Shown here in pieces: positions 378-60,439 of a stretch of DNA of 63,633 nt (the stretch's first letter is position 1; each line of letters opens with the position of its first letter). Below the pieces are notes generated by a model, which saw nothing but the letters and a program-made list of their open reading frames with translations, was not told the DNA's origin and did not search any database. The stretch spans positions 1 to 63,633 of the forward strand of contig JBFMDM010000001.1 in the NCBI GenBank assembly GCA_040753835.1, given 5' to 3'. Position numbers and translations under genes: made by a program. The stretch comes from Planctomycetota bacterium (GTDB lineage: Bacteria > Planctomycetota > MHYJ01 > JACQXL01).

Positions 378-573
378 TTGTCCCGCTGGGACAATCAACT
401 ATAACTGGCAGTAACGTCGTAACTACCAGTAATCGTTTACCGTATAGCCCCGCTTTAGGCGGGATAAACTCCGAGCGTGGAACGTATAGTAGAAATACTA
501 TATGCTCTATGCTATTTGCATATCACCATCTTTTTACTTGACCCTGCGCATAATATTTGTGTAAAGTGCAAGG

Positions 574-1246: not shown

Positions 1247-1954
1247 ATGCCAATAGCAATACCAAAAGAGACCATCAAGCGGCTGTTCATTTATTACCGG
1301 GCCTTGCTGGAATCCCGCGAGACCGAGGTGGTCTCGTCCGAGGAGTTGTCGCAACTGACCGGATTCAGCGCGGCGCAAATCCGCAAAGACCTGACCTATT
1401 TCGGGCAGTTCGGAACGCCGGGCAAGGGTTATACCATCAAGGACCTGACCCATCAATTAAAGGCCATCTTGGGCATAGACCGCGACTGGGAGGTGGCCTT
1501 AATCGGCGTGGGCAACGTGGGCCGGGCGCTCGTGGCCTACGGGGGACTCAAGGCCCAGGGCTTTAAAATCACCCAACTCTTTGACGGCGACCAGAACAAG
1601 ACCGGGATGTTCTGCGCGGGCTTAAAGATAAAAGACATCAAAAACATCAAGGAGGATGTCCGGAGCAACAACATCAAGATAGCCATCCTAACCGTGCCGG
1701 CCCAGGCAGCCCAGGAGGTAACCAACCTGGTGGTTGAGGCCGGAATCAAGGCAATCCTCAATTTCGCGCCGACCAGAATAATTGTGCCTGAGGATGTCAA
1801 TGTCCTGAATATTGACATCACCAACGAATTGACGCGGTTGTCATATCATCTGGTCCAGCCCGCCAGCCGGTCGGGCGAGGCCGGCCCTTCAGCAGAGTCA
1901 CCCGCTTCTGATGAAACATCCCAGAACCCGGAGGGACATTTTGCAGGCGGGTAG
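1247..1954 (+). CDS. rex: Redox-sensing transcriptional repressor Rex
   Basis: N-terminal winged-helix IPKETIKRLFIYYRAL...SSEELS...GFSAAQIRKDLTYFG and Rossmann motif IGVGNVGRAL. It has an unusual Ser/Pro-rich C-terminal tail, and its stop codon abuts a MITE terminus at 1955. Confidence 0.9.
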   Translation: MPIAIPKETIKRLFIYYRALLESRETEVVSSEELSQLTGFSAAQIRKDLTYFGQFGTPGKGYTIKDLTHQLKAILGIDRDWEVALIGVGNVGRALVAYGGLKAQGFKITQLFDGDQNKTGMFCAGLKIKDIKNIKEDVRSNNIKIAILTVPAQAAQEVTNLVVEAGIKAILNFAPTRIIVPEDVNVLNIDITNELTRLSYHLVQPASRSGEAGPSAESPASDETSQNPEGHFAGG

Positions 1955-2245
1955 CCCCGCACATAACTTGCATATGTATTATGTTTATCTAATACAGAGC
2001 AGAAAAACCGGGAAGTTTTATATCGGGTTTACACCTGATTTAAGAGACCGGCTTAATAAACATAATACAGGAAAAGTCACGGCTACCAAGGTCTATATAC
2101 CGTATGAATTGATTTATTATGAGGCGTATAAATCAAAAAGAGATGCCTTGACGCGCGAGCATAATCTCAAATATTTTGGACAAGGATTCAGCAGATTAAA
2201 GGAAAGAATTAAATACTGTATCCATAATGCAAGTTATGTGCGGGG
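1955..2245. mobile_element. GIY-YIG gene unit bracketed by 19-bp perfect terminal inverted repeats of the CACATAA-MITE family
   Basis: ccccgcacataacttgcat (1955-1973) is the exact reverse complement of atgcaagttatgtgcgggg (2227-2245). Another left terminus starts at 2249. Confidence 0.6.
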
Positions 2246-2270
2246 TAACCCCGCACATAAAGATTGTTGA
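1974..2270 (+). CDS. Small GIY-YIG nuclease-family protein (URI domain only)
   Basis: MYYVYLIQSRKTGKFYIGFTPDLRDRLNKHN...YEAYKSKRDALTREHNLK carries the GIY/YIG, R, and E..N motifs. The internal ATG at 1974 is in frame with track ORF 1911-2270. Confidence 0.85.
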   Translation: MYYVYLIQSRKTGKFYIGFTPDLRDRLNKHNTGKVTATKVYIPYELIYYEAYKSKRDALTREHNLKYFGQGFSRLKERIKYCIHNASYVRGNPAHKDC

Positions 2271-2491: not shown

Positions 2492-3628
2492 TCATTTCCT
2501 GCCTCTTGGCTTCGCAGGTCTTGGCCTCGGAGCTGCCGGTTTTGTATTAGGCGCTGATGTCTTGGGCGTACGCCTGAAAAAATTGTCGTTCCAGTTGTGG
2601 CTCTTATCCCAGGCATCCTCCCTGCGGTCGCGGACATCCTCGCGTCTGTCGCGTCTGTCTTCTTTTCTGTCCCGGACGTCCTCGCGCTTATCACGGCGGT
2701 CTTCGGCCTTGTCACGCGCGCCGCCGTCGTGTTTGGCGTCCCTGGCGTCCTCTTTCTTATCGCGGATGTCTTCCTTCCGGTCACGGCGGTTTTCCCGCCT
2801 GTCACGGACATCTTCCCTTTTATCGCGCCTGTCCTCGGCCTTATCTGGATTAACCGGCGGATTCTTGGCGTCAACCTTATCCTCTGCCTTGTCACGCCTG
2901 TCTTCGCGTCTGTCGCGCACGTCCTCGGCATTATCTCTGCGGTCTTCACGCCTGTCCCTGACGTCCTCGGCCTTGTCGCGCGCCCCGCCGTCGTGCTGGG
3001 CATCCCGGACATCCTCGGCCTTGTCTTTTGCATCCTCAATGCGGTCGCGCACGTCCTCGGCTTTATCGCGTCGGTCCTCGCGCCTGTCCCGGACGTCCTC
3101 GGCCTTATCGCGGTTAATCCGGCGTCTGGCCCAAATATCGTCAGCCGCATCCGAGACGTCGGTCCACTCTCCGTTCTTCTTCTGTTCATCATCCCAGCGG
3201 TTGAGCAGTTCCTCGCGCTTAGCCGAAATATTCGCCTTTTCCGCATCGTCAAGTTGCCCGTCTCCGTTGGCGTCTCCGTGTTTGAGGATGAACTGTTTCT
3301 GGCGTGTTCTAAGATTGAATATCTTCTGGGTAATCTCCTCGTATTTCTCCGGGTCTTCGGCGCGCAGTTTAGCCAACCGTTCCTTCATGGTCTGTCTGAA
3401 TTTATCCGGGTCTTTATCGCGCAGGGCCAGCGCCTCGTCCTTTTCCTTCTGGAGTGCGTCATCGCCCCGACCACTGTTGCCATCGCCCACCTGGCCTGCC
3501 TGCCCCGCTGGGGCGGTAGGCAGGTCGGTCTTGTTGCTCTGGCTGTCATCCTGATTATCGGTTGCATACACGCCTGACCCAAATCCCATCAATCCCATCA
3601 GGACTATCATTAATACTGTCTTTCTCAT
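2492..3628 (-). CDS. Secreted, extremely charged D/R/E/K tandem-repeat protein with an EF-hand-like DxNxDG loop
   Basis: SD GAAAGGAG upstream and signal peptide MRKTVLMIVLMGLMGFGSGVYA. It has a DANGDGQLDD loop and many DKAEDVRDRREDRRD-type repeats. Confidence 0.7.
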   Translation of the reverse strand: MRKTVLMIVLMGLMGFGSGVYATDNQDDSQSNKTDLPTAPAGQAGQVGDGNSGRGDDALQKEKDEALALRDKDPDKFRQTMKERLAKLRAEDPEKYEEITQKIFNLRTRQKQFILKHGDANGDGQLDDAEKANISAKREELLNRWDDEQKKNGEWTDVSDAADDIWARRRINRDKAEDVRDRREDRRDKAEDVRDRIEDAKDKAEDVRDAQHDGGARDKAEDVRDRREDRRDNAEDVRDRREDRRDKAEDKVDAKNPPVNPDKAEDRRDKREDVRDRRENRRDRKEDIRDKKEDARDAKHDGGARDKAEDRRDKREDVRDRKEDRRDRREDVRDRREDAWDKSHNWNDNFFRRTPKTSAPNTKPAAPRPRPAKPRGRK

Positions 3629-3884: not shown

Positions 3885-3972
3885 AATCTGCGAAATCTGT
3901 TTACTCGCAGTTCGCACGAAGTAAGTTACTGCGAGTTATCCCGACGAATGTCGGGAGTAATCTGTGGTTTCC
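3885..3972. repeat. Right arm of the perfect 88-bp inverted repeat
   Basis: Exact reverse complement of 2348-2435. Confidence 0.95.
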
Positions 3973-4056
3973 CGTCCGTGGCGCCGCTTCTGGCGAGCCC
4001 CGCCCTTCGGGGCGTGAGTCCGCCCTTTGGGGTTCCTCCCACTGGAACCCGGTGGG

Positions 4057-5285: not shown

Positions 5286-6311
5286 ATGAATTATTATCCC
5301 AAATTTCATACAACGAGTTATTATAAAATACCCATAATTATTCTTTTTCTGGCTGCAGCCGCCATAATCCTGCCGTCTGAGGACCAGAATCCGGAGAACA
5401 CGCCGGCAGAAGAATCATCCCAGCCTGCCCGACCGAATGACACCGGTCGTTCGGGCGGGTCGTCCCTGTTGGAGAAGAAACGCCCCGAAGATAAGATTTT
5501 CGTGGGCCAGTGGGCCAGATACCAGATCAGACGTTACAAAAAGGACGCAGCCGATGATACGATTAATGCGCTTTCAGAGGCGGATATTAAAATCAGTATT
5601 ATCGGCAAGGAAACCGTGATAGAGAACGAATACCTTTGGGCGGAATTTGTCATCAATGAGGGCAGGGCGGAACAGCGGATTGTGCGGCTGATGGCGGACA
5701 GGGAGGGCAAACCCGCGCCCGAGCGGCTGGTCCTGAAATACGGAAAACTGCCGGCCGTGGAGATACATCTCAGAATCTGGGAGGTCAAGACCAGAATCAC
5801 CCGCGAGATGCTCTTTGACGAAATGACCTCGGAACTCAACATCATCCCGTTTACCCGGATATTAACGCCCGAGGTCTTTGACGAGAGTTCGGTTACCTAC
5901 GAGACCCTGCCCATCAAGATAGGCCCGAAGGAGACCTCGCTCGGTTGCACCCGCGTGTTGTTAAAGCAGGAGGGGGCGCAACCCGCCCGACCGGACGGTC
6001 GTTCGGGCGGGGAGCCGGCGCTTTTGGCGCCGTCCGCCACAACCGGATATATCTGGTATTCGGACAAGGTGCCGCTGGCCGGGCTGGTGAAACTGCTAGT
6101 GACCGAAGACCGGTACCGGACGATGATACTTCTTACGGATTACGGCCGGGGCGGAGCCAGGTCGCTTATCAGGGAAACGCCGGCCAAACTGGATTTTAGG
6201 GAGAAAGCAGCAGCGCATCCCGTGAGGGAAGGAAATACAGCCGCAGATGACCCCTACGGGAATAACTCGCTGATAACGACCACGGGTCTAACAGCGAGTA
6301 AACACAGATGA
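5286..6311 (+). CDS. Hypothetical protein with N-terminal membrane anchor/signal
   Basis: A 341-aa ORF with hydrophobic N-terminus IPIIILFLAAAAIIL. It has two in-frame palindromes (5424-5459, 5982-6012), each encoding PARP(N/D)..GRSGG. Confidence 0.6.
   Translation: MNYYPKFHTTSYYKIPIIILFLAAAAIILPSEDQNPENTPAEESSQPARPNDTGRSGGSSLLEKKRPEDKIFVGQWARYQIRRYKKDAADDTINALSEADIKISIIGKETVIENEYLWAEFVINEGRAEQRIVRLMADREGKPAPERLVLKYGKLPAVEIHLRIWEVKTRITREMLFDEMTSELNIIPFTRILTPEVFDESSVTYETLPIKIGPKETSLGCTRVLLKQEGAQPARPDGRSGGEPALLAPSATTGYIWYSDKVPLAGLVKLLVTEDRYRTMILLTDYGRGGARSLIRETPAKLDFREKAAAHPVREGNTAADDPYGNNSLITTTGLTASKHR
5424..5459. repeat. In-frame GC-rich palindrome (CCTGCCCGA...TCGGGCGGG)
   Basis: 9-bp arms, translated as QPARPNDTGRSGGS. 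Confidence 0.7.
5982..6012. repeat. In-frame GC-rich palindrome (CCCGCCCGA...TCGGGCGGG)
   Basis: Same arms as 5424-5459, 13413-13442 and 20872-20907, translated as QPARPDGRSGGE. Confidence 0.7.
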
Positions 6312-6399: not shown

Positions 6400-9300
6400 A
6401 TGAGATATAAATTCAGCATATTATTTATTCTTTTCTTCATCTGGCTCGCCCCGCTGTTTTTGTATCCCGAAGACAATCCTGAGGATGAGGATAAAATAAC
6501 CCCGGCGCCGGCTGAAGTGATATTTGACGAAGACCTGCCGGCTGATTTGGGAAAACTTATTGAGGTGGTCTATCGCTGGAAAGAGCCGCAGTCCAGCGTG
6601 GACGAGATTGTCTACAAGCGGCTGATTAAGGTCCAGGGCGCGCGGCTGGGCTGTTATTACTATGCAATGTACGCCCGGTGCAAGGATAATATCCTGGTTG
6701 GCAAAACAGCCGCGCCCGACCCGACAGGGTCCCTGCGGGATACGTGGACGCCTGAGCGGGTCCTGATGGGCGGAGAGGATATTTCCCTTGCCGTTTATAA
6801 AGGCGTGATAGAAACCCTCGCCTCGCCAGGCGCCCGCTCCGCCGAGGCGGAGACGAGGCGAGAAGCCGGCGGGGGCAAGAGCGCGGAGTATCGCATTATT
6901 TATTACCAGCAGACCCCGTATGGCCTGTTGCGTCTGGGCGAAATCAGACGCCACACGGATGAGTTTGTGCCCGATATGCGTTTTGTCAAGTGCATTGCCT
7001 CCGAAGTGGGCAAGGACACGCCGCCGACCTTGTGGCATATCGGCGCCCTGGTGTCCGGCTCGCTGGCGCTGTTTGATTATTTCAATCCCAAGGAGGAAGC
7101 GAAGAATCACGCGCCGGTTGCGGATTTCCGGACCATACCGGCCACCGGCACCATCAATACCGTTTTCTATTTTGACGCCGGCGTCTCAACCGACGCGGAC
7201 AGCCCAATAGGCGACCTGCTGGTGCGCTGGAATCTGAACGGCGACAGCGACTGGGATAATGTATTCACATTTGATAAGATAACCAGCACCTCATTCGGCG
7301 CGCCCGGGACATACAATATCGTGGCGCAGGTGCGCGACAAGGAGGGCGCATTTTCTACTATTACCAAGACGGTAACCGCCATTGCAGTCGGCCCAGGTCC
7401 CGGCTCCACGCCCCATCCGATGTTCCGCAACACCGTCACTCATACGGGAGTATCGCCTTACAACGGACCGGTGGTAACCACCACCAAATGGACCGTAACG
7501 ACCGGCGAAAGGATAGAGGCCGCTCCTTCTATCGCCTCTGACGGGACCGTCTATGTCGGCTCTTATGACGGCGCGCTGTATGCCATTCTGCCCGCAACCG
7601 GAGTCGTGTCCTGGACCAGCCCTTTGGCCGGTCCGGTTCATTCGTCTGCGGCCATAGCCACAGACGGCACGGTTTATGTGGCCGCAGATACGCGGTTGTA
7701 TGCGCTTAATCCGGCCAACGGTAATCCCTACTGGTCATACAGCACCGGCGGATTGGTGCGCTCCTCTCCGGTGATTGACTCGGACGGCACGGTTTATATC
7801 GGCTCGCTGGATAATAATCTCTATGCAGTCAATCCGGACGGCAGTTTCAAGTGGTCGTATGCCACAGGCGGGCAGATATGGTCCTCGCCCGCCATCGGGC
7901 CGGACGGCACGATTTACGTGGGCTCGCTGGATAACGGCATTTATGCGATAAACCAGAACAGCACGTTCAAATGGAAATATACGACCGGCGGCGGGATTTA
8001 TTCCTCGCCGGCCGTGGATAATTCTAACGTGGTTTATGCCGGGAGTTTGGACGGCTCGTTCTATGCGCTCAATCCGGACGGGACGCTGAAGTGGAGCATT
8101 CCGGCCGGCGGGCAGGTGTGGTCTTCAGCGGCTTTAAGCGGAACGGCGGTCTATTTCGGTTCGGATAGCGGCACCTTGTATTGCCGTAACGTTTCAAACG
8201 GCACGCCCCAATGGTCTTACCCGGCCGGCAACAGGATTCGCTCCTCGCCGACCGTGGATGCCTCGGGCCGGATTTATTTCGGAGCGGATGACGGTAAACT
8301 TTATGGCCTGGATTCGTCCGGAGCGGATTTATCTAATTGGCCGATTGACCTGTCCGGCGCCATCACACCCATCCGCTCGTCCGTGGCGATTGCCAATGCC
8401 GTGACGCCGACCCTGTATGTCGGCTCGTATGACAAGAAGATATACGCCATCGGTGCGGCCGCGCTTGACCCGGCTGACCTGGTTATCCAAAAGACAGCCA
8501 ATAAACAGCAGGTAACAATCGGCGAGGTGGTGACATATAAAATTGTAATCACCAACCAGGGTCCGGACCCGACCAATGGAACGCCGACAGCAATTATTGA
8601 CGCCATTCCGGCCGGGTTCAAGTATCTCAAGGGCTCAACCCGCCTGTCCGGCGCAGTTCAGCCGGACCCAAGCGGAAGCGATATCCTTACTTTTGACGTC
8701 GGGCATTTTACGCCCGGCTCTTCCAAGGCGTTGACCTACCAACTGGTAGTGGGAAGCGGGGTGCGCGAAGGCCGCTATGTCAACCGCGTGTATGCCGTTT
8801 ATTATTACGACCAGCCGCCGCTCACCGAGGGCAGGAGCGGTATCGCCAGGAGCGAGGTTTGGGTCGTGCCTGACCCGCTCTTTGACCTAGGCACGATTAT
8901 CGGCAAGGTATTCTGGGATAAGAACGCCAATGGAGTGCAGGATAAAGGCGAAGGCGGATACGGCGTAGCGCAGATAATAATGGAAGACGGGACGATAATT
9001 ACCGCGGACAGGAACGGCGGTTATCATATCCCGGGCGTGAAGCCGGGCACGCACCTGTTGCATCTCATGGATATTTCCGCGCACTGGATAACCACGGATA
9101 ACCCCTGCCTGGTGCGGGTTACGCCGGGCCTTCTGGTTAAGACGAATTTCGGGATTCATCCGGTGGATAAACCGCTGGATTCGTTTGTGCCGCCCCTTAA
9201 AGATATGACTTTTGTCTTATTGGGCGAGGGTGAAGTGAGCAGTATTTACGCCAACGGCAGCAATGCGGACAAGCAGGATAAGAGCGTCAGGGACGGCAAT

Positions 9301-11928
9301 TACCTGAACGGGCGGCTGGCCTATTATCTTTCAGGCCGGATAGAGGATAAGTTCACGGTTGTTTCGTCGCTTGATACCCGGCGCGCGCAGTCCCAGTCCA
9401 CGGGATTTCGGTACCTTGACCCGGATAAGTATTATACCGAATACGGCGATAATTCTTCGGTATCGTATGATGCCGCAAATGCGGCCGGCCCATTTTACCT
9501 GAGGATTGACTCGCTGCCCGGGGCGAACCTCGGGAAATCCAGTTTGTTATATGGTTCATATCAATCGGGGATTGACAAGACAGAACTGACGACGTATCAA
9601 AGGACGCTTTCAGGAGTGAAAATAGACGCCGCGCAGGTGCCGGTCTATGAAGACGAGCGCCTGAAGATAAAGGCGTCCGGCACGGTATTTGCCGCCCAGC
9701 CGGTTGATGCAGCGCAGGCGCCGGCCCATAACGAGTTCCGGGCCACCGGCGCTTCGGTGTATTACCTCAAAAACAGGGATATCCTGCAGGGCTCGGAGCG
9801 TATTGCCGTAGAAACGCGCGACAGGGTCACCAACCTTGCGTTTTCCACCAGGCAACTGCTCCGCGACAGCGATTACGAAATAGATTATTCCAACGGACGC
9901 ATTATCTTCAGAGCGCCGCCTTCAATGGTTGATACTTCGGCATATATTACCTCCAATAATATTCTCGGCGGCAATCCGGTTTACGTTGTGGTTGATTATG
10001 AATACGCGCCGGCCGGAGCGCGAGGGATTAATGACGGCCCTTACGGCGGCCGGCTCTCGGGCGAGTTGTCGGACGAGCGGGATAATAAAATCCAGTTGGG
10101 CGGGACATATATCGCGGAAAAGGACGACAGTGACTACGAACTAAAAGGTCTTGATTTCACCCTGAACGAGCCGGCGACGTTTATTATTCCGATGAGATTA
10201 TCCTTGGCTGCCGAATACGCCGAGTCAACATCCCGGGGCATAGACGGATATATCTCCTCAAACGGCGGGTTGGGTTTTAATGCCATCACCGGCACCAATT
10301 CCAGCGACGGGGTCGCGTATAAAATCAAGGGCGGGATAAAAACGTCCGAACAGTTTGGGATTGATTCGTATTACCAAAAGGTGGAGCCCGGATTTATTTC
10401 GGCTTCGTCATACAACAACCAGGGTTCGTTGCGCTACGGCTATCTAATATCTATCAAAGGTGATACTGCTTCGCGGTGTGGCGGCTACGACCCTCCCACG
10501 ATTGCTATAAATCTCCGTTATGATAACCAGGAGTTATTGAGGAACTCCAATATTATTTCGCAGGGCAATATCGGCGCGGAGCGCACCGAGACCGGCGCTC
10601 TGCAGGTAATTTACCGCAGCGATAAATGGACCATTACCAACGAATACCGTTATCAAGAGGCGACCAACCTGATTGGCGGTGTTAAGGCCGAGACCAACGA
10701 GGACCTGGCGCTCGGCGCGCTCAAGGTTGATTATGCGGTTACGCCGAGGAGCAATGTCTATGCAATCCAGCAGGCGGCCCTGAAGGGCGATGCCAATTCG
10801 CAGACCACCCTGGGTGCGACGTTCGGCCTGTGGGAAAAGACCGCGGTCGTGCTCCAGGCCACCTCCGGTACAAATGGTAATGCATTCCTGATAGGCGTGA
10901 ATAACAGGGTGTCAGACAAGACCGAGACGTTTTCCAATGTCAGCATCAGCGATGATAATTCATTGGACACGTTACAGGTCTCCAACGGTGCCTCGTACCA
11001 GTTGACGCCAACAACGCGCCTTAATGCACAGCAGGATTATTCAACCAGGAAGAACCAGTCAACAGATGCCACCCAACGTTCAACCGCCGCTTCGGTGGGT
11101 CAGGAAACCAAACTTTCAGACCGGTGGCGGTTCTGGGCGACCGCCCAGCAGGGTATTGTCAATGAATATAACGGCGCAACTAATATAGAAACCGTCAGGG
11201 AATCCGGCTGGCTCCGGTTCAGGTATGCGGATAATGACAATACCGTGTTTGACACCAAGATTGAAGCCAGGTTTGACGAGGGCGACGTGGACAAGCGCCA
11301 GTACCTAACCGCCAACAGTTTCAGGCATAAGATAACCGAGGACATTACGGTTTCTTTGCGGGATAATTATTCCCGGACCGAGAATCGGACTACCGATACG
11401 AACGAGGCGCTTTTTAACGAAGCCGGTTTGGGCCTGGCCCTGCGGCCGGTCAAATGGGACCGGTGGCACCTGTTGGCTAAATACACCTATCTTAAGAATA
11501 TCTATCCGTCCGCCCAGACCGACGCCACGGTGGGCACAACAAGGACGTTATCTAATATTTATGCCATAGAAACCGCCTATGACATCTCTAAATATCTGCA
11601 ACTGGTGAAGAAATACGCCCTGAAGGATATGAAAGAAACCGTGGCCGGCTATGACGAGACCGAGAATGAGGTTACGCTCTGGATTAACCGCATCAACTAC
11701 AACGTCATCAAGCAGTGGTATGCCGGCGTGGAATACCGCATCCTCAGGCAGACATTAGGCGAGGACAAAAAGAGCGGATTCCTGGTTGAGGTGACGCACC
11801 GGGCCTCGGAGAATATCCATTTAGGCGTGGGTTATAACTTCACTGATTTTTCTGACGACCTCAGGCAAAACAACAGTTATTCCAGCAACGGATTCTTTGT
11901 CAGGATTAATACGGCGTTCGGGTTTTAA
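6400..11928 (+). CDS. Giant (1842 aa) surface protein: PKD-like domain, ~9 PQQ/beta-propeller repeats, DUF11-type repeat, SdrD/Cna-B-like domain, large C-terminal OM beta-barrel
   Basis: N-terminal hydrophobic signal. Repeats of the form DGT(V/I)Y(V/I)GS.D..LYA(L/I)NP..G..KW. The motifs TIGEVVTYKIVITNQGPD and GKVFWDKNANGVQDKGE are present. The C-terminus ...GFFVRINTAFGF ends in Phe, as in OMPs. Confidence 0.85.
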   Translation: MRYKFSILFILFFIWLAPLFLYPEDNPEDEDKITPAPAEVIFDEDLPADLGKLIEVVYRWKEPQSSVDEIVYKRLIKVQGARLGCYYYAMYARCKDNILVGKTAAPDPTGSLRDTWTPERVLMGGEDISLAVYKGVIETLASPGARSAEAETRREAGGGKSAEYRIIYYQQTPYGLLRLGEIRRHTDEFVPDMRFVKCIASEVGKDTPPTLWHIGALVSGSLALFDYFNPKEEAKNHAPVADFRTIPATGTINTVFYFDAGVSTDADSPIGDLLVRWNLNGDSDWDNVFTFDKITSTSFGAPGTYNIVAQVRDKEGAFSTITKTVTAIAVGPGPGSTPHPMFRNTVTHTGVSPYNGPVVTTTKWTVTTGERIEAAPSIASDGTVYVGSYDGALYAILPATGVVSWTSPLAGPVHSSAAIATDGTVYVAADTRLYALNPANGNPYWSYSTGGLVRSSPVIDSDGTVYIGSLDNNLYAVNPDGSFKWSYATGGQIWSSPAIGPDGTIYVGSLDNGIYAINQNSTFKWKYTTGGGIYSSPAVDNSNVVYAGSLDGSFYALNPDGTLKWSIPAGGQVWSSAALSGTAVYFGSDSGTLYCRNVSNGTPQWSYPAGNRIRSSPTVDASGRIYFGADDGKLYGLDSSGADLSNWPIDLSGAITPIRSSVAIANAVTPTLYVGSYDKKIYAIGAAALDPADLVIQKTANKQQVTIGEVVTYKIVITNQGPDPTNGTPTAIIDAIPAGFKYLKGSTRLSGAVQPDPSGSDILTFDVGHFTPGSSKALTYQLVVGSGVREGRYVNRVYAVYYYDQPPLTEGRSGIARSEVWVVPDPLFDLGTIIGKVFWDKNANGVQDKGEGGYGVAQIIMEDGTIITADRNGGYHIPGVKPGTHLLHLMDISAHWITTDNPCLVRVTPGLLVKTNFGIHPVDKPLDSFVPPLKDMTFVLLGEGEVSSIYANGSNADKQDKSVRDGNYLNGRLAYYLSGRIEDKFTVVSSLDTRRAQSQSTGFRYLDPDKYYTEYGDNSSVSYDAANAAGPFYLRIDSLPGANLGKSSLLYGSYQSGIDKTELTTYQRTLSGVKIDAAQVPVYEDERLKIKASGTVFAAQPVDAAQAPAHNEFRATGASVYYLKNRDILQGSERIAVETRDRVTNLAFSTRQLLRDSDYEIDYSNGRIIFRAPPSMVDTSAYITSNNILGGNPVYVVVDYEYAPAGARGINDGPYGGRLSGELSDERDNKIQLGGTYIAEKDDSDYELKGLDFTLNEPATFIIPMRLSLAAEYAESTSRGIDGYISSNGGLGFNAITGTNSSDGVAYKIKGGIKTSEQFGIDSYYQKVEPGFISASSYNNQGSLRYGYLISIKGDTASRCGGYDPPTIAINLRYDNQELLRNSNIISQGNIGAERTETGALQVIYRSDKWTITNEYRYQEATNLIGGVKAETNEDLALGALKVDYAVTPRSNVYAIQQAALKGDANSQTTLGATFGLWEKTAVVLQATSGTNGNAFLIGVNNRVSDKTETFSNVSISDDNSLDTLQVSNGASYQLTPTTRLNAQQDYSTRKNQSTDATQRSTAASVGQETKLSDRWRFWATAQQGIVNEYNGATNIETVRESGWLRFRYADNDNTVFDTKIEARFDEGDVDKRQYLTANSFRHKITEDITVSLRDNYSRTENRTTDTNEALFNEAGLGLALRPVKWDRWHLLAKYTYLKNIYPSAQTDATVGTTRTLSNIYAIETAYDISKYLQLVKKYALKDMKETVAGYDETENEVTLWINRINYNVIKQWYAGVEYRILRQTLGEDKKSGFLVEVTHRASENIHLGVGYNFTDFSDDLRQNNSYSSNGFFVRINTAFGF

Positions 11929-12023
11929 CCCCGCACATAAGATTTATTAAGCGTTTATAACGGCTGATAAATACTTGATTCAAACCATCTGCATAATTGG
12001 TTATACAAATATTATGTGCGGGG
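11929..12023. mobile_element. 95-bp CACATAA-MITE copy
   Basis: Termini are ccccgcacataa (11929-11940) and ttatgtgcgggg (12012-12023). The interior is nearly identical to 21483-21577. Confidence 0.85.
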
Positions 12024-19888: not shown

Positions 19889-19965
19889 AACACAACTACT
19901 ACGAATTACGAATCTGCGAATTACGAACACCGCAGTGACCGCGATAGCGAATTCGTCATTCGGAT

Positions 19966-21387: not shown

Positions 21388-21686
21388 CCGCATTATTCAT
21401 AAATTTTTATACAATTATGTTGAAAGCCATTCCATAGTTGTTATATGGTGCGGGTAATCCAGCACATAACCTCTACTGCTTGCCCCGCACATAAGGTTTA
21501 TTAAGCATTTATGATGGCTAATAAATAACTTCCTCAAATCATCTGCATAATTGGTCATACAAATATTATGTGCGGGGTGAAGGCTACCCAAGTTGAAGGT
21601 TATGTGCTGGGCTACTTTATTGTATAGGCACAAACATCTAATACACTTTGTTACCATTTTTAGCATTGTATGAATAATCCAGATTA
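21388..21686. repeat. ~300-bp composite repeat (termini GCATTATTCATA.../...TATGAATAATCCAGATTA) between gcvPA and gcvH, with nested elements
   Basis: It shares its ends with 45075-45293 and 46002-46209. It contains the hairpin element 21459-21610 (CCAGCACATAAC.../...GTTATGTGCTGG), which is itself split by the 95-bp MITE at 21483-21577. Confidence 0.8.
21483..21577. mobile_element. 95-bp CACATAA-MITE copy nested in another repeat
   Basis: Termini are ccccgcacataa and ttatgtgcgggg. The interior matches 11929-12023 with few substitutions. Confidence 0.85.
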
Positions 21687-26921: not shown

Positions 26922-27062
26922 CGGACGGCTAACGGCGTCCCACAGGTAGTATAAAACACGAATCGCACGAATAGGAGCAAATGATACGAATAATTATTCG
27001 CCAGATTCGTTATCATTCGTCCTATTCGTGTTTCTCAGTTCTTCCGTCCCTCAGTTTCTCCG

Positions 27063-27929
27063 TTAGACAATGTATCCGACGACAGTGATATAGAGTGTAA
27101 GCGTTCCAACCCATGGCCCACCCACGGACTCCAAAGCATACTCAATCGTCCTCGGACCTGTGCCAACTACCAGCGGAACAATCCCCTGATTAGCCACCTG
27201 TGAATTCGCGCCCGGAATCAAACCCAAGCCGAGCGCATCGCGCTGGTCAGTGTTAGTTCTCACCCTGAAGAACGCCCGGCCTGTGGCAAACGACTGGTTG
27301 AAGATTCCCAGTTGCAGAATCACTGCCTTGGCCTGCGCCGGAATCCAGGGACTCAAATCAAAGACCGTGTAGGGAATATCCGCGCTGATGTCGGTCAGGT
27401 ACAGCGCCTCTACCGAAGGCGTCAGGAACGACATCCGGTCCCCACCGCCCACTCCGGGCGCTAACTTCTCGGCCGTGACTGCTCCATTCTGTATTTCACC
27501 TGTGCCGATGGCATTGTTAGCGATTTTCCCTTGCGTGATTGTATTTGTGGCAATCTTGGCATTGGTCACTGCGCCATCCGCAATCTTGAGCGCTGTTACC
27601 GCGCCGCTGGGCAGTTTATCGCCGGTCACCGCGCCATTGGCAATCTTATCGGCGCTTACCGCGTCGGTTGCCAGTTTGGTGTTGGTCACCGAACCGTCCA
27701 TCAGCGGAATCACCGAGACATCGCCGCCTAATTTGGCCAGTGTAACCGCGCCGTCCGCAATATCCTCGGTCCGGACTTGGCCCGGAGCGATATCCACTGA
27801 CTTGATGGTCTCGTCCTTGATTTTCTCCGAGGTGACTGCTTCGTTGGCAATCTTCTCCTCGGTTACCGCGCCCTCAACGATAGCAGGCGTCGTAACTTTA
27901 CCGTCAAAATATTTTGGTCTATATGTCAT
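27063..27929 (-). CDS. B-family protein, copy B1: ~14 eleven-residue repeats + GGGDR hinge + conserved C-terminal domain
   Basis: SD AAGGGGGTGA lies 5-6 nt before the ATG at 27929 (the track start at 27938 is GTG). Repeats look like GAVT.EKIA./DGAVTNAKIA. The C-terminus matches 1-377 and 59465-59830. Confidence 0.8.
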   Translation of the reverse strand: MTYRPKYFDGKVTTPAIVEGAVTEEKIANEAVTSEKIKDETIKSVDIAPGQVRTEDIADGAVTLAKLGGDVSVIPLMDGSVTNTKLATDAVSADKIANGAVTGDKLPSGAVTALKIADGAVTNAKIATNTITQGKIANNAIGTGEIQNGAVTAEKLAPGVGGGDRMSFLTPSVEALYLTDISADIPYTVFDLSPWIPAQAKAVILQLGIFNQSFATGRAFFRVRTNTDQRDALGLGLIPGANSQVANQGIVPLVVGTGPRTIEYALESVGGPWVGTLTLYITVVGYIV

Positions 27930-27987
27930 ATTTATCACCCCCTTTGTTATTCTGAATAAATGTTATCAAAAGGAGGTCGCCCAGCCC

Positions 27988-37850: not shown

Positions 37851-38378
37851 ATGAGAAACAAGAATAACCGCGGACTTGCCTCGCACATAAGCGATGATGA
37901 AATATTGAGGAATGAAAGTTCCCCGAATTTGGCGGTGAAGGATACAAAACGGCACGGCCATTTATGTGCGGGATTCACCCTGATTGAACTGCTGATGGTG
38001 GTAACGATTATCGGGATACTGGCCGCGATAGCGGTTCCGAAATTTGTCGGGCTTGGGAAAAAGGCGTCTATAAAGGCGTCTATTGCAGAGATAAGGGTTA
38101 TTGGCTCGGCGCTGGAGCGATACGAGATGGACAACCAGATGTTTCCCTCAACCGAACAGGGCCTTAAGGCGCTTATTGAAAAGCCGTCCACCTCGCCGGT
38201 GCCTAGGGACTGGAACGGCCCTTATTTAAGCGAGGATATTAACGACCCGTGGGATAATCCGTATCAATACCGGAATCCGCCCCAGAGCGGCCGGACCGAT
38301 TACGACCTCTGGTCCAAGGGGCCGGACGGTACGGACGGAACTGCAGATGATGTTACAAACTGGAAAAAAGAGAAATAA
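37851..38378 (+). CDS. gspG: Type II secretion major pseudopilin GspG with a MITE-encoded extended leader
   Basis: SD AAGAGGAG, GFTLIELLMVVTIIGILAAIAVPKF, and the GspG C-terminal block WNGPYL...DPWDNPYQY...DLWSKGPDG. Confidence 0.85.
   Translation: MRNKNNRGLASHISDDEILRNESSPNLAVKDTKRHGHLCAGFTLIELLMVVTIIGILAAIAVPKFVGLGKKASIKASIAEIRVIGSALERYEMDNQMFPSTEQGLKALIEKPSTSPVPRDWNGPYLSEDINDPWDNPYQYRNPPQSGRTDYDLWSKGPDGTDGTADDVTNWKKEK
37879..37972. mobile_element. CACATAA-MITE copy inserted in-frame in the gspG leader
   Basis: Termini are cctcgcacataa (37879-37890) and ttatgtgcggg (37962-37972). Removing it leaves MRNKNNRG|FTLIELL. Confidence 0.75.
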
Positions 38379-38755: not shown

Positions 38756-39523
38756 ATGAAGAAGACAGGATTAAGGGGACTTACCTCGCACATAAACGGG
38801 GATGAAACAACGCCGGAGGCAAATGTGTCAGCCCTGAATCTTACGCCAAAAGGTGTAGTGAGACGCGGTTATTTATGTGCGGGGTTCACTCTTATAGAAC
38901 TGCTGATAGCCAGCGTCTTGACGGCCTTGGTTGCCTTGGCCGCATATCACGCCTTTAGCCAGGGGATTCTAATCTGGAAAAAGGGCCAGGAAAACACCAA
39001 TCAAGACAAGGCGCTGATGGCAATGGAAAGGATATCACGCGAACTGAAGAATATGTTTTCCTTTGAACCGGTCGGGTTCAGCGGCGAGGAGACGAAGGTT
39101 TCCTTTCCCTGCCTGGCCTATAGATATGATTGGATAGAGCCGAACGAGGAAGCGATAATAGAGCCGGTCTCGGCCACGGCAGAAACCGCGCCGTTGCCGC
39201 TTATTACCAAGGCCACCTATGAATATAATCAGAGCGAGGAGAAACTTTCGCGCCTTGAAGAGGTATATGCCTATCCGGACCTGGAGGAGTTAAAGACCAA
39301 GACGGACTGGGCGAAGAAGGACTCCAGCCGCATTATCCTGGAGGATGTGGAGATACTGAAATTCTCCTACGCCATCACCAAGACGCCGGAACTCAGTTTT
39401 TCCAACAGCGTCATCAACTCCGGCATTCCGTATGCCGTGAAAATAGAGTTGAAACTGAAGAGTATGAAAGACGCCTTAACGCGCACCATACTTGTCCCGG
39501 TTATCAAACCGCCTATAAACTGA
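38756..39523 (+). CDS. Minor pseudopilin (GspJ-like) with a MITE-encoded extended leader
   Basis: GFTLIELLIASVLTALVALAAY, and a leader paralogous to that of gspG (RGLTSHINGDE...YLCAG). Confidence 0.65.
   Translation: MKKTGLRGLTSHINGDETTPEANVSALNLTPKGVVRRGYLCAGFTLIELLIASVLTALVALAAYHAFSQGILIWKKGQENTNQDKALMAMERISRELKNMFSFEPVGFSGEETKVSFPCLAYRYDWIEPNEEAIIEPVSATAETAPLPLITKATYEYNQSEEKLSRLEEVYAYPDLEELKTKTDWAKKDSSRIILEDVEILKFSYAITKTPELSFSNSVINSGIPYAVKIELKLKSMKDALTRTILVPVIKPPIN
38784..38884. mobile_element. CACATAA-MITE copy inserted in-frame in the GspJ-like leader
   Basis: Termini are cctcgcacataa (38784-38795) and ttatgtgcgggg (38873-38884). Removing it leaves MKKTGLRG|FTLIELL. Confidence 0.75.
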
Positions 39524-45293: not shown

Positions 45294-45409
45294 GTATTAC
45301 AGAACTCCGGCAAACGCAAGATTTATCCCGATTTAATATTTCTACGTTGCAGATTCCGGCAAAACCGCTATTTTACACGGAAACCAGGATTATAAAAATC
45401 CCCCTTGAT

Positions 45410-45505
45410 CCCGCACATAATATTTGTGTAAAATGCAGGATATCTAAGTAGATGTGGCAATTATTTCTATTCCCTGGAGGCGAATAATAATGCTTATGTG
45501 CGGGG
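45410..45505. mobile_element. 96-bp CACATAA-MITE copy
   Basis: Termini are cccgcacataa (45410-45420) and ttatgtgcgggg (45494-45505). Its left part (cacataatatttgtgtaaaatgcagg) matches a half-copy at 541-573. Confidence 0.8.
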
Positions 45506-46001: not shown

Positions 46002-46209
46002 CCCGCATTATTCATAAATTTTTATGCAATTATGCTAAAGGCCGTGCATAGTTATTATATTATGCGGGCAATCCCGCACATAACTTCTGCTTTGGGCTAC
46101 CTAAGTTGAAGGTTATGTGCGGGGCTGGGCTATAAGATAAGTATAAAGATATAAGACGTCTTGGTATTATCTTAAGGGTAATATGGATAATCCAGATTAG
46201 CCATAAGGA
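46002..46209. repeat. Composite repeat, ATTATTCATA family, copy 3, containing a 52-bp CACATAA hairpin element (46073-46124)
   Basis: It starts cccgcattattcataaatttttatgcaattatg and ends atggataatccagatta. Its 3' end supplies the last 9 codons and the stop of prmC. Confidence 0.8.
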
Positions 46210-59464: not shown

Positions 59465-60439
59465 CTACATTATATAACCGACGACTGTAATGTATAGCGT
59501 CAATGTAGCAGACCATGGACCGCCCACGGACTCCAACGCGTACTCAATCGTCCTCGGTCCTGTTCCCACCACCAGCGGCACTATCCCCTGATTGGCCACC
59601 TGCGAATTCGCGCCCGGAATCAAACCCAAGCCGAGCGCGTCGCGCTGGTCAGTATTAGTCCGGACCCTGAAGAACGCCCGGCCTGTGGCAAATGCCTGGT
59701 TGAACATCCCCAGTTGCAGAATCACGGCCTTGGCCTGCGCCGGAATCCAGGGACTCAAATCAAAGGCCGTATAAGGAATATCCGCGGAGATGCCGGTCAG
59801 GTAAAGCACATCAGCCGAACCCAGTCCGGTGAGTAATGTCCCGAAGGTAAAGCGGTCTCCGCCTCCGATACCAGCCGCCAATTTCTCCTGCGTCACCGCG
59901 CCGTTCTGGATTTTCTCCGTACTGACACTGCCTACTGCCAACTCACTACTGCCTACTGCTCCAGATTGTATTTCGCTGGAGCCAATCGCATTAGCCGCAA
60001 TCTTTGAGGCCGTAACTGCGTTATTCGCTAACTTGGCATTGGTTACGGCTCCATCCACCAAATCCTCTGTTCTGACGCTCTGGTCTGCGACCTTTTCTCT
60101 GGTAATTGCGCCGTTGGCAATCTTCTCTGTGGTTATTGCCCCGGCCACTATCTTGCCTGAGGTAATTGAGCCGTCTGCAATCTTTTCGTTAGTCACGCTG
60201 GCCGATTGCAACTTATCATTGGTTACTGCCTTACTGGCTATTTTTACGGCGCTAACTGAACCGTCTACTAATTCATCAGTTCCGACCACACCATCGGCAA
60301 TCTTGCGCCTGGTTACCACACCGTCCTTGATATGTTTTTCCTCAATAGCGTCATTGGCTATTTTCTCGCCCGTGGCCGATTGCGGGCTTAGGTGTTTTGT
60401 TTTGATTTCGTTGAGTCGGTCGTACAAAGTCCTTGCCAT
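59465..60439 (-). CDS. B-family protein, copy B3: ~16 eleven-residue repeats + GGGDR hinge + conserved C-terminal domain
   Basis: SD AAAGGAG. Repeats look like DGSITSGKIVAGAITTEKIANGAITREKVAD. The C-terminal ~120 aa are near-identical to 1-377 and 27063-27420. Confidence 0.85.
   Translation of the reverse strand: MARTLYDRLNEIKTKHLSPQSATGEKIANDAIEEKHIKDGVVTRRKIADGVVGTDELVDGSVSAVKIASKAVTNDKLQSASVTNEKIADGSITSGKIVAGAITTEKIANGAITREKVADQSVRTEDLVDGAVTNAKLANNAVTASKIAANAIGSSEIQSGAVGSSELAVGSVSTEKIQNGAVTQEKLAAGIGGGDRFTFGTLLTGLGSADVLYLTGISADIPYTAFDLSPWIPAQAKAVILQLGMFNQAFATGRAFFRVRTNTDQRDALGLGLIPGANSQVANQGIVPLVVGTGPRTIEYALESVGGPWSATLTLYITVVGYIM

Follow-up and report, generated by a model that had tools for sequence, protein, structure and literature searches.

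The window analysed here is a stretch of 63,633 nucleotides (nt) from a Planctomycetota bacterium (GenBank assembly GCA_040753835.1, contig JBFMDM010000001.1, positions 1 to 63,633 of the forward strand). Its positions 1955-2245 hold a small GIY-YIG nuclease gene enclosed by the two arms of an inverted repeat, and the tips of these arms also end a family of gene-less hairpins elsewhere in the window. This segment is best explained, with a probability of about 0.55, as a copy of a compact selfish cassette, in which a GIY-YIG gene of around 85 codons resides in the loop of its own hairpin, the tips of the hairpin act as the cognate recognition element, and the gene would be the autonomous partner of the window hairpins. 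The cassette is a conserved unit, present in hundreds of genomes at unrelated genomic sites.

Architecture of the window cassette

The features of the cassette and of its borders are the following.

1947-1954, plus strand: right-tip-like GCGGG with the spacer TAG (the rex stop codon), immediately 5' of the left arm
1955-1973, plus strand: left arm of the inverted repeat, CCCCGCACATAACTTGCAT, its last base being the base before the ATG
1974-2270, plus strand: gene of a single-domain GIY-YIG nuclease of 98 amino acids (aa), with the ATG at 1974 and the stop codon at 2268-2270
2227-2245, plus strand: right arm of the inverted repeat, ATGCAAGTTATGTGCGGGG
2234-2260, plus strand: palindrome made of the right tip, TAA and a solitary second left tip (2249-2260), a tail-to-head junction

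As an earlier note on this DNA had claimed, the two arms are exact reverse complements and constitute a perfect inverted repeat of 19 nt, which grows to 25 nt at 92% once the imperfect flanks are counted by the repeat finder. The outer 12 nt of the left arm correspond to the tip CCCCGCACATAA, common to the whole hairpin family. The GIY-YIG open reading frame (ORF) that the same note placed between the arms is intact and matches Pfam PF01541 over residues 1-66 (E 3.3e-14, 53.4 bits against a cutoff of 22.6), this being the sole domain above the Pfam curated cut-off, with T5orf172 as a weak match below it. A core of about 83 aa aligns with homologs of about 85 aa, and the final 15 or so codons run through the right arm; the window ORF is longer than its homologs because this arm is read through. 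In an alignment of 37 sequences (A1), residues Y3, Y5, Y16, G18, R26, H30 and E62 are invariant, and the set Y3/Y5/Y16/R26/H30/E62 includes what we take to be the catalytic positions, namely the two motif tyrosines, the Arg, the His or Tyr, and the Glu. The nearest solved structures are those of UPF0213 and SLX1, and a tblastn search finds a single GIY-YIG gene in the window.

The left tip follows the rex stop codon without a gap, and between rex and the GIY-YIG ORF no match to a promoter- or terminator-like site is found. Together with the left tip, positions 1947-1954 give a small palindrome, GCGGG-TAG-CCCGC, an arrangement repeated at 2241, 21450 and 46064 (repeat family D14). Around 6 of the 9 left tips in the window are preceded, 3-5 nt upstream, by such a right-tip-like GCGGG; the mirror arrangement, with a left tip downstream of a right tip, occurs once in the window, at 2246-2260. 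This asymmetry between the upstream GCGGG and its rare downstream mirror suggests a directional joining step. The tail-to-head junction, also described in the earlier note, is present: since 3 nt separate the right arm from the start of the second left tip, positions 2234-2260 form a perfect palindrome that has 12 base pairs (bp) in its stem and TAA in its loop, with a folding energy of -20.3 kcal/mol and a z-score of -6.4. A partial equivalent of this junction, GGGG-TAAA-CCCCC, is present in the closest relative, L001.

The inverted repeat travels with the gene

Detectable homologs of the GIY-YIG protein number 528, mostly of about 85 aa. For a survey of the flanking repeat, 587 relatives were found, mostly from Patescibacteria and also from Planctomycetota, Omnitrophota, Bdellovibrionales and other lineages; 80 loci were taken from species-representative genomes, of which 76 were testable. 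A bracket was defined as an inverted repeat with a score of at least 12, and the controls had the same geometry at shifted positions. Under this definition, 67 of the 76 homologs are flanked by an inverted repeat (median score 17) against 1 of 355 control positions, which answers in the affirmative the proposal that GIY-YIG genes of this kind are consistently repeat-flanked. The left arm ends 0-52 nt (mostly less than 30) before the ATG, the right arm overlaps the stop codon in most cases, and in several cassettes the ATG lies exactly at the center of the palindrome.

At their outer ends, 73 of 85 left arms agree with the consensus (A)CCCC-N-CAC. The inner part of the arms varies between cassettes, with the two arms of each remaining mutually complementary. 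Contig L002, for example, has two cassettes whose arms (CCCCGCACATAATTTGTAT and CCCAGCACACAATTTCCTG) differ between the cassettes and match within each. Moreover, 10 of 70 other loci have extra copies of the cognate 11-nt tip no more than 4 kb from the gene, the expectation being about 0.004 per locus. Among these arrangements are a 52-nt hairpin with cognate tips in the same RNase P RNA gene as the cassette (L015), a minimal hairpin of 30 nt with cognate tips (L045, 4768-4797) and complete hairpins on each side of the GIY-YIG gene (L070). The gene and the repeat termini therefore belong together, in an association that is real and cognate, and the layout resembling that of RAYT and REP elements, with a gene tied to its termini, is borne out by the brackets of the homologs and by these hairpins with cognate tips.

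The closest relative, L001, shares 86% aa identity and the same arms, on a contig of only 1.3 kb from ENA. Apart from it, no relative of the window protein above 65% identity is found in the JGI metagenomes, nor above 64% in the GTDB species representatives, and no exact copies of the window GIY-YIG and Rex proteins are on record. Orthologs of the genes flanking L001 were sought in the window as an empty site, and none was found. In a Saccharibacteria locus (L046; 2349-2380, 3966-4266), the cassette lies in the P3 hairpin of RNase P RNA and its tip CCCCGCACATAA is identical to that of the window, with proteins that are only about 47% identical. The minimal hairpin of this locus is preceded by GTAG, as is the left tip in the window (1951-1954), and this feature is not general.

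The repeat is present in relatives of about 48% identity or more and absent in a more distant group of 80-aa GIY-YIG proteins. The latter (38-46% identical; metagenome loci L132, L134, L137, L138, L141, L145, L148 and L152) are without CCCC-N-CAC arms, and many of their genes have AGCGAAG / CTTCGCT or GAAGCTTCAGCGAAGG-like motifs in front of them, possibly a different cognate repeat.

Sharp boundaries and purifying selection

An alignment of the window with L001 and L002 shows that similarity starts at the left tip and stops at the right tip or a few nt past it, with unrelated flanks: L002 diverges directly after the right arm, and L001 keeps about 7 further nt (TAA.CCC). The 5' neighbour is rex in the window and a GspE/PilB-like gene in L001, and the L002 cassette is located within RNase P RNA. 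For the window protein compared with that of L001, the ratio of non-synonymous to synonymous substitution rates (dN/dS) is 0.055, with dS of about 1.15. In spite of synonymous sites being saturated, 37 of the 38 arm nt are identical, including 19 of 19 in the left arm. Such identity at this dS indicates that the sequence of the arms is itself constrained, and not their pairing alone, so that both the protein and the arms are under purifying selection.

Cassettes occupy structured RNA genes and mRNA 3' regions

Of the cassettes with flanking repeats, 89 in all, 34 are located in or at a structured RNA gene. In RNase P RNA, the position of the P3 hairpin accounts for 11-12 cases, and the J2/4 joining region and the P12 region are also occupied; in rRNA, the sites are helices h6, h17 and h44 of 16S and helix H63 of 23S; and 10 cassettes lie at tRNA 5' ends, 6 of them at tRNA-Ala. 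Full-length host RNAs are recognised by Rfam around the inserts, as in the RNase P RNA of L002 (196 bits with two cassettes), and LSU, SSU or RNase P RNA matches surround the inserts of 12 further loci. In several of these RNAs the native hairpin tip is replaced by an extended stem, namely in 23S H63 (L034), in 16S (L026, L036, L075, L011, L056) and in RNase P RNA (L002, L053, L067).

The ORF of the cassette is co-oriented with the RNA gene in 33 of 34 cases. Of the cassettes elsewhere, 33 have an upstream ORF on their own strand and 12 have one on the opposite strand, and in 15 of the 33 co-oriented cases the left tip falls between -25 and +22 nt from the upstream stop codon. The window cassette is of the latter kind, since it follows a protein gene, in the mRNA 3' region, and is not in an RNA gene. 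Cassettes are thus co-oriented with host transcription, usually without room for a promoter of their own.

Two sites deserve a description of their own. In L002 (2363-3339, identical in L003 and L085), one RNase P RNA gene holds two different GIY-YIG cassettes, one in place of the P3 hairpin and the other in J2/4, where it separates the 3' strand of P2 from that of P4. On the opposite strand, a spurious ORF of 132 aa has been called across this RNA. At the tRNA 5' ends (L020 3951-4281; L022, L042, L054, L061, L069, L008), the GGGC of the right tip corresponds to tRNA nt 1-4, and a direct repeat of 8-18 nt, composed of the right tip plus the first 9-11 tRNA nt, is located just upstream of the left arm.

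Gene-less hairpins are insertions

The 12-mer CCCCGCACATAA, allowing one mismatch and counting both strands, occurs 16 times in the window against 0.46 expected, and none of 100 shuffles reached 16. These 16 tips yield at least eight paired hairpin elements in 63.6 kb, which include those at 11929, 21483, 45409 and 46072 that the earlier note had recognised as non-coding elements with the same ends, and the two in-frame copies it had seen in pseudopilin genes. The elements and related tips are listed below; a strand is given where one is assigned.

543-553, plus strand: degenerate solitary left tip CCTGCGCATAA, within a stretch that partly copies the left portion of the 45409 element
11929-12023: gene-less hairpin element of 95 nt, whose first base directly follows the stop codon of ORF 6400-11928 (1842 aa)
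21458-21611: outer hairpin element with tips TCCAGCACATAA / TTATGTGCTGGG, whose loop holds the nested element 21483-21577
21483-21577: gene-less hairpin element of 95 nt within the loop of the outer element (fold z -4.1)
37879-37973, plus strand: in-frame hairpin element that separates MRNKNNRG from FTLIELL in the prepilin leader of GspG
38784-38884, plus strand: hairpin element in frame in a second pseudopilin gene (38756-39523), at the same Gly/Phe position (fold z -4.1)
45409-45505: gene-less hairpin element of 97 nt, with CTTGA on each side (fold z -2.3)
46072-46124: short hairpin element of 53 nt, the unfilled counterpart of 21458-21611 (-33.2 kcal/mol, z -5.4)

Every element folds with a terminal stem of 11-15 bp, that of 11929-12023 being of 14 bp (z -5.1). 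Only the 12-nt tips are common to them; the interiors differ, save for the elements at 11929 and 21483, which are 88% identical throughout (D10). Because of this, the hairpins are one family by their termini and not by the whole 95 nt. The earlier description of a family of MITEs of about 95 bp (miniature inverted-repeat transposable elements) consequently stands for the shared tips, but not for the interiors, which are unlike one another, and no target-site duplication of fixed length accompanies the elements. No Rfam family falls on any hairpin element, either at the gathering threshold or at E up to 0.1, and the same search gives one tRNA only.

The gene-less hairpins are true insertions, as demonstrated by a nested copy and by pseudopilin orthologs that are without the insert. 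An alignment of three paralogous intergenic segments (A2) reveals 21483-21577 as a clean insertion relative to the paralog 46072-46124, the latter preceded by a right-tip-like TTATGCGGG-CAA. The hairpins can also be copied as gene-less units.

In the GspG gene (37851-38378), the element pushes the N_methyl motif to residues 39-62 and falls precisely at the junction of the Gly and Phe codons where the prepilin is cleaved. The Gly of this site is re-created by the right tip of the element, TGTGCGGGA (TGT GCG GGA); therefore, prepilin peptidase should remove the insert together with the leader. Two GspG orthologs from locus L165 (P0122 and P0123; 85% identical, 141 aa) read MKNNRAG/FTLIELL, without the 34-residue insert. 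In a more distant, syntenic Planctomycetota contig (L166 8023-8120, also L167 and L168), the GspG is 57% identical and has an element at the same Gly/Phe junction as the window, with degenerate tips CCCCGCGCATAA / TTATGTGCTGGG, an unrelated interior and GG(A/G)TTCAC bordering it on both sides. The presence of this element at the same site implies either recurrent insertion there or precise loss in the L165 lineage. For the second pseudopilin, the syntenic counterparts in L166 and L167 have no insertion.

The left end of the 45409-45505 element overlaps a promoter-like site, TTGAyC-N18-TAAArT (in the element itself, TTGATC-N18-TAAAAT). Positions 537-570, directly upstream of the ORF 574-1173, are 88% identical to 45404-45437 (family D20), and this copy may be a re-use of the element sequence as a promoter.

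Proposed mechanism and alternative explanations

The protein is related to the Ssn enzymes, which bind their hairpin as single-stranded DNA, cut upstream of it and are inactive on double-stranded DNA and on RNA (Chenal et al. 2025, Nat Commun, PMC11893778). By analogy with this family, the window protein would bind the hairpin of the arms in single-stranded DNA, at replication forks or during DNA uptake, and would nick next to its base; hairpin recognition and nicking are taken as the most likely mechanism because of the homology to Ssn and the conservation of the tips. After such cuts, repair, ligation or template switching by the host, with the arms serving as short homologies, could move the cassette or swap loops. 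The nuclease would also act in trans on gene-less hairpins with the same tips, which would make the gene the autonomous partner of the window hairpin family. Moreover, the paired arms would make an insertion an extra stem-loop, so that it would be tolerated where a hairpin of rRNA or RNase P RNA stands, directly behind a stop codon, or within a leader that is cleaved. Mobilisation of the hairpins by the nuclease is no more than plausible.

Several points weigh against the selfish cassette. To our knowledge, GIY-YIG enzymes hydrolyse DNA without a covalent intermediate and do not perform strand transfer alone; therefore, excision and re-joining would need host functions. The protein scores 45 bits against UPF0213 BH0048 and 43-46 bits against Ssn, with Ssn against UPF0213 giving at most 32 bits, and since it is as close to UPF0213 as to Ssn, the transfer of Ssn biochemistry to it is an extrapolation. 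The motif of the Ssn repeat SRM, HGTCWYN(0-2)YYVSBRHN(0-5)WNVSBRGN(0-2)RNCYNB, has 0 matches in the window (0.55 expected from shuffles). Also, arm mismatches comprise 19 of the G.U type and 13 of the A.C type, with no clear bias to the DNA or RNA level, which is not decisive. No target-site duplication of fixed length exists at the cassettes, where flanking direct repeats range from 0 to 18 nt; a direct repeat of the kind right tip plus spacer is seen at about 10 of 87, mostly at tRNA 5' ends. Finally, the syntenic loci L166-L168 have one hairpin element and no GIY-YIG gene within 12-14 kb, although this neither supports nor excludes co-occurrence.

Other explanations place the mobility elsewhere. 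In a homing-like invasion, the gene would enter pre-existing hairpins, including P3 of RNase P RNA, as targets, with the stems as repair homology, and the hairpins would spread otherwise. Loops that are highly variable between identical stems agree with it, as do the short unfilled hairpins (46072-46124; L045 4768-4797), the ATG at the exact center of several palindromes and the native P3 consensus in Rfam, which, like the tips, is rich in C on its 5' strand and in G on its 3' strand. However, one genome, L002, holds two cassettes whose arms differ and match individually, the tip motif is kept across phyla whatever the host, the arm sequence is conserved along with the protein, arms of 12-19 nt are short for recombinational repair, and the copying of the gene-less 11929 and 21483 elements to new sites would be unexplained; we thus regard this course of events as rather unlikely. 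A domesticated host function, with a mobility that is only historical, has been proposed for SsnA and its repeat NTS in Neisseria, as for RAYT/REP, and here could consist of single-stranded DNA uptake or recombination, or of hairpins that act as mRNA 3' stabilisers, terminators or promoters. The strong purifying selection on a gene that is single-copy in the window would be expected of such a function, SsnA does modulate transformation in Neisseria (PMC11893778), many elements directly follow stop codons, and the promoter-like left end of an element is re-used upstream of another gene (537-570, 45404-45437). Nonetheless, the cassettes are spread over many phyla, unrelated sites and essential RNA genes, with several copies in L002 and L027, a scattered and sometimes multicopy distribution as expected of a selfish element that moves horizontally, and the insertions are recent, being absent from orthologs that are 85% identical. 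Domestication is judged improbable.

The arms could instead act in RNA, as a stem for RNase III-like excision or for the folding of the host RNA, with conventional homing of the gene and with the gene-less hairpins as decayed remnants. The cassettes that replace hairpins of rRNA and RNase P RNA while the host RNA still scores at full length, their nearly uniform co-orientation with it (33 of 34), and the GIY-YIG ORFs that are unrelated to introns in rRNA insertions of the Candidate Phyla Radiation (CPR), as reported by Tsurumaki et al. 2024 (PMC11270868), all accord with this. Against it, intergenic cassettes have equally perfect arms with the same tip sequence, the conservation of the tips goes beyond mere pairing, arm mismatches are without G.U bias, and the elements at 11929 and 21483 have a common interior that bears no relation to the gene and hence are not simple remnants. 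This explanation, which can coexist with the favoured selfish cassette, has in our view a slim chance of being the principal one. By comparison, it would be a matter of coincidence if two ends of an unrelated MITE family had landed around a resident GIY-YIG gene. The fact that the window elements and the cassette have only 12-nt tips in common fits such a landing, which is nevertheless refuted by the survey of the homologs, with its near absence of brackets at control positions, and by the alignment with L001, the closest relative, where the same bracket stands in a different genomic context; its likelihood is negligible.

Other repeats in the window

The genome is unusually rich in intergenic palindromes, and further repeats accompany the hairpin family in the window. 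A 104-nt inverted repeat (2332-2435 / 3885-3988; 96% complementary, with several small hairpins) brackets the minus-strand gene 2492-3628, which adjoins the GIY-YIG cassette and encodes a secreted-looking protein of RDRREDRRDKAEDV-type repeats with no Pfam match. A second intergenic repeat, GGCGAG(C/G)CTCGCCCTTCGGGGCGG, is present in at least 7 copies (2317, 3992, 24211, 24222, 35078, 35552 and 37741). A palindrome family, CCCGCCCGACCGGACGGTCGTTCGGGCGGG, occurs at positions 5982 and 13413 and has relatives at 5424 and 20872; palindromes rich in ACGAAT lie at 19899, 50480 and 26954-27033. Three copies of about 270-300 nt (6-277, 27070-27416 and 59472-59845), 82-87% identical and one of them inverted, belong to the paralogous ORFs 15-377, 27063-27938 and 59465-60439, which have 30-nt periodic internal repeats in common.

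Comparison with known systems

Several classes of element were considered and discarded. A classical DDE-type insertion sequence (IS) or MITE would explain the inverted termini, but direct repeats are absent or of 3-18 nt and only the 12-nt tips are common. An intron-borne homing endonuclease was rejected as no intron family is found in the window (Rfam, E up to 0.1), nor around the cassettes of L002 and 19 other loci. Integron attC-like sites and operators of transcription factors were considered from the sequence and dropped, because the bracket travels with the gene across phyla.

The homing endonucleases I-TevI and Seg share the catalytic domain and a selfish spread into conserved genes; however, they possess a C-terminal DNA-binding domain and long double-stranded sites, whereas the window protein is a bare domain. 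For the palindromic elements of Rickettsia and the Correia elements of Neisseria, we know of no dedicated transposase and of no sequence relationship to the window hairpins; here, in contrast, a candidate partner enzyme is physically linked to the repeat.

A resemblance to rRNA intervening sequences is given by the relatives of the cassette that replace the tips of 16S and 23S hairpins with a long stem and an ORF. These are probably the same GIY-YIG insertions as those that Tsurumaki et al. 2024 (PMC11270868) report from CPR rRNA genes, where the ORFs are said to be unlike either intron class and are judged as probably not spreading by homing; a term search of that paper for inverted repeats returns no mention, and the insertions described in the portions consulted are in rRNA only, whereas the relatives found here are also in RNase P RNA and tRNA genes. 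Literature joining GIY-YIG with MITE, REPIN, RAYT, RNase P or intervening sequence gave nothing relevant, the papers of Tsurumaki et al. 2024 and Chenal et al. 2025 aside.

With REP/REPIN elements and their RAYT (TnpA-REP) enzymes, the cassette shares an enzyme gene flanked by inverted, short palindromic repeats that are abundant elsewhere, repeat doublets that form hairpins of about 100 nt, and repeats that are non-autonomous. The difference lies in the enzyme, which in the window is a GIY-YIG hydrolase and not an HUH/Y1 transposase. IS200/IS605 elements are likewise comparable in their dependence on hairpins of single-stranded DNA, in having no fixed target-site duplication and in insertion by a short specific sequence, the counterpart here being the GCGGG often found 3-5 nt upstream of the left tip. 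Nonetheless, no HUH transposase is present here and hence no known strand-transfer chemistry, and the arms of the cassette pair across the whole element, unlike the IS200/IS605 ends, each of which has its own subterminal hairpin.

The nearest system is that of the Ssn proteins (CDD cd10448) described by Chenal et al. 2025 (PMC11893778), which are about 94 aa long and have GIY-YIG as their single domain. Their genes are bordered by a hairpin repeat, NTS/SRM (CGTCATTCCCGCGMAVGCGGGAATCYRG), of which there are hundreds of copies; for SRM, the authors give a figure of 81% for the correspondence of the repeat with its cognate gene. That paper had already paired small GIY-YIG nucleases with hairpin repeats and itself drew the analogy with insertion sequences and RAYT/REP, so the earlier suggestion that the window represents an enzyme class new to such a role has been overtaken. 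That study counts a protein as part of the Ssn clade if BLASTP against SsnA of N. meningitidis (CAX49033.1) gives E<1e-10 and a coverage of 75% or more, or if its top CDD hit is cd10448. A consensus sequence served only as a probe to retrieve real Ssn-family proteins of 95 aa, and no conclusion rests on it. The protein P0329 is a genuine member of the family because it is flanked by canonical NTS copies in locus L169, where the SRM expression finds 4 of them. Against P0329, the window protein has 34% identity over 70 of its 98 aa (45 bits, pairwise E 9e-13).

Both systems consist of a GIY-YIG protein of about 90-100 aa without a separate DNA-binding domain (98 aa in the window) and of a gene placed between hairpin-forming repeats, of which many more copies are scattered elsewhere, with the repeat sequence varying along with the protein in cognate pairs. 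The stem core TCCCGC / GCGGGA is also related, and the relative L070 has the hairpin-gene-hairpin layout typical of Ssn. The flanking repeats of Ssn have a modified equivalent in the window, where the arms pair across the gene and a full palindrome lies at 2234-2260. However, the published SRM motif needs a 5' GTC tag. Here, moreover, the hairpin loop usually holds the gene, with a half-site on either side; the repeats act like insertions and have 20-75 nt in their loops, and relatives of the cassette occupy RNase P RNA, rRNA and tRNA genes. Judged by protein similarity, the window protein, of a MYYVY...ELIYYEAY subfamily, is related to Ssn, but the cassette is not filed as a member, as the SRM motif is lacking and the protein scores equally well against UPF0213.

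The words rRNA, RNase P, tRNA, Patescibacteria, Planctomyc- and MITE do not occur in the text of the Ssn paper, which left open the mobility of 'repeat-ssn-repeat' units (PMC11893778). The bounded cassettes at unrelated sites in many phyla, the inserted gene-less hairpins and the co-conservation of arms and protein bear on this question. If the nuclease does drive mobility, an enzyme class would be added to those of prokaryotic transposition. The cassettes could also account for the GIY-YIG ORFs of CPR rRNA insertions and extend such insertions to RNase P RNA and tRNA genes, an extension that matters for the annotation of RNA genes and for 16S-based surveys, and they would supply many natural pairs of nuclease and hairpin for tools that cut single-stranded DNA.

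Relative to the published work on Ssn and on rRNA insertions, what is new here is the gene-in-loop architecture, the sharp boundaries with evidence of mobility, and the sites in hairpins of essential RNAs and in leader peptides. More speculatively, and with doubts of our own, Ssn-like GIY-YIG nucleases might be the engine of an unrecognised class of hairpin transposons that carry the gene in the loop of their own recognition hairpin, colonise structured RNAs and cleavable leaders, and amplify gene-less hairpins in trans, which would make them a hydrolytic, non-HUH counterpart of IS200/IS605 and RAYT/REP.

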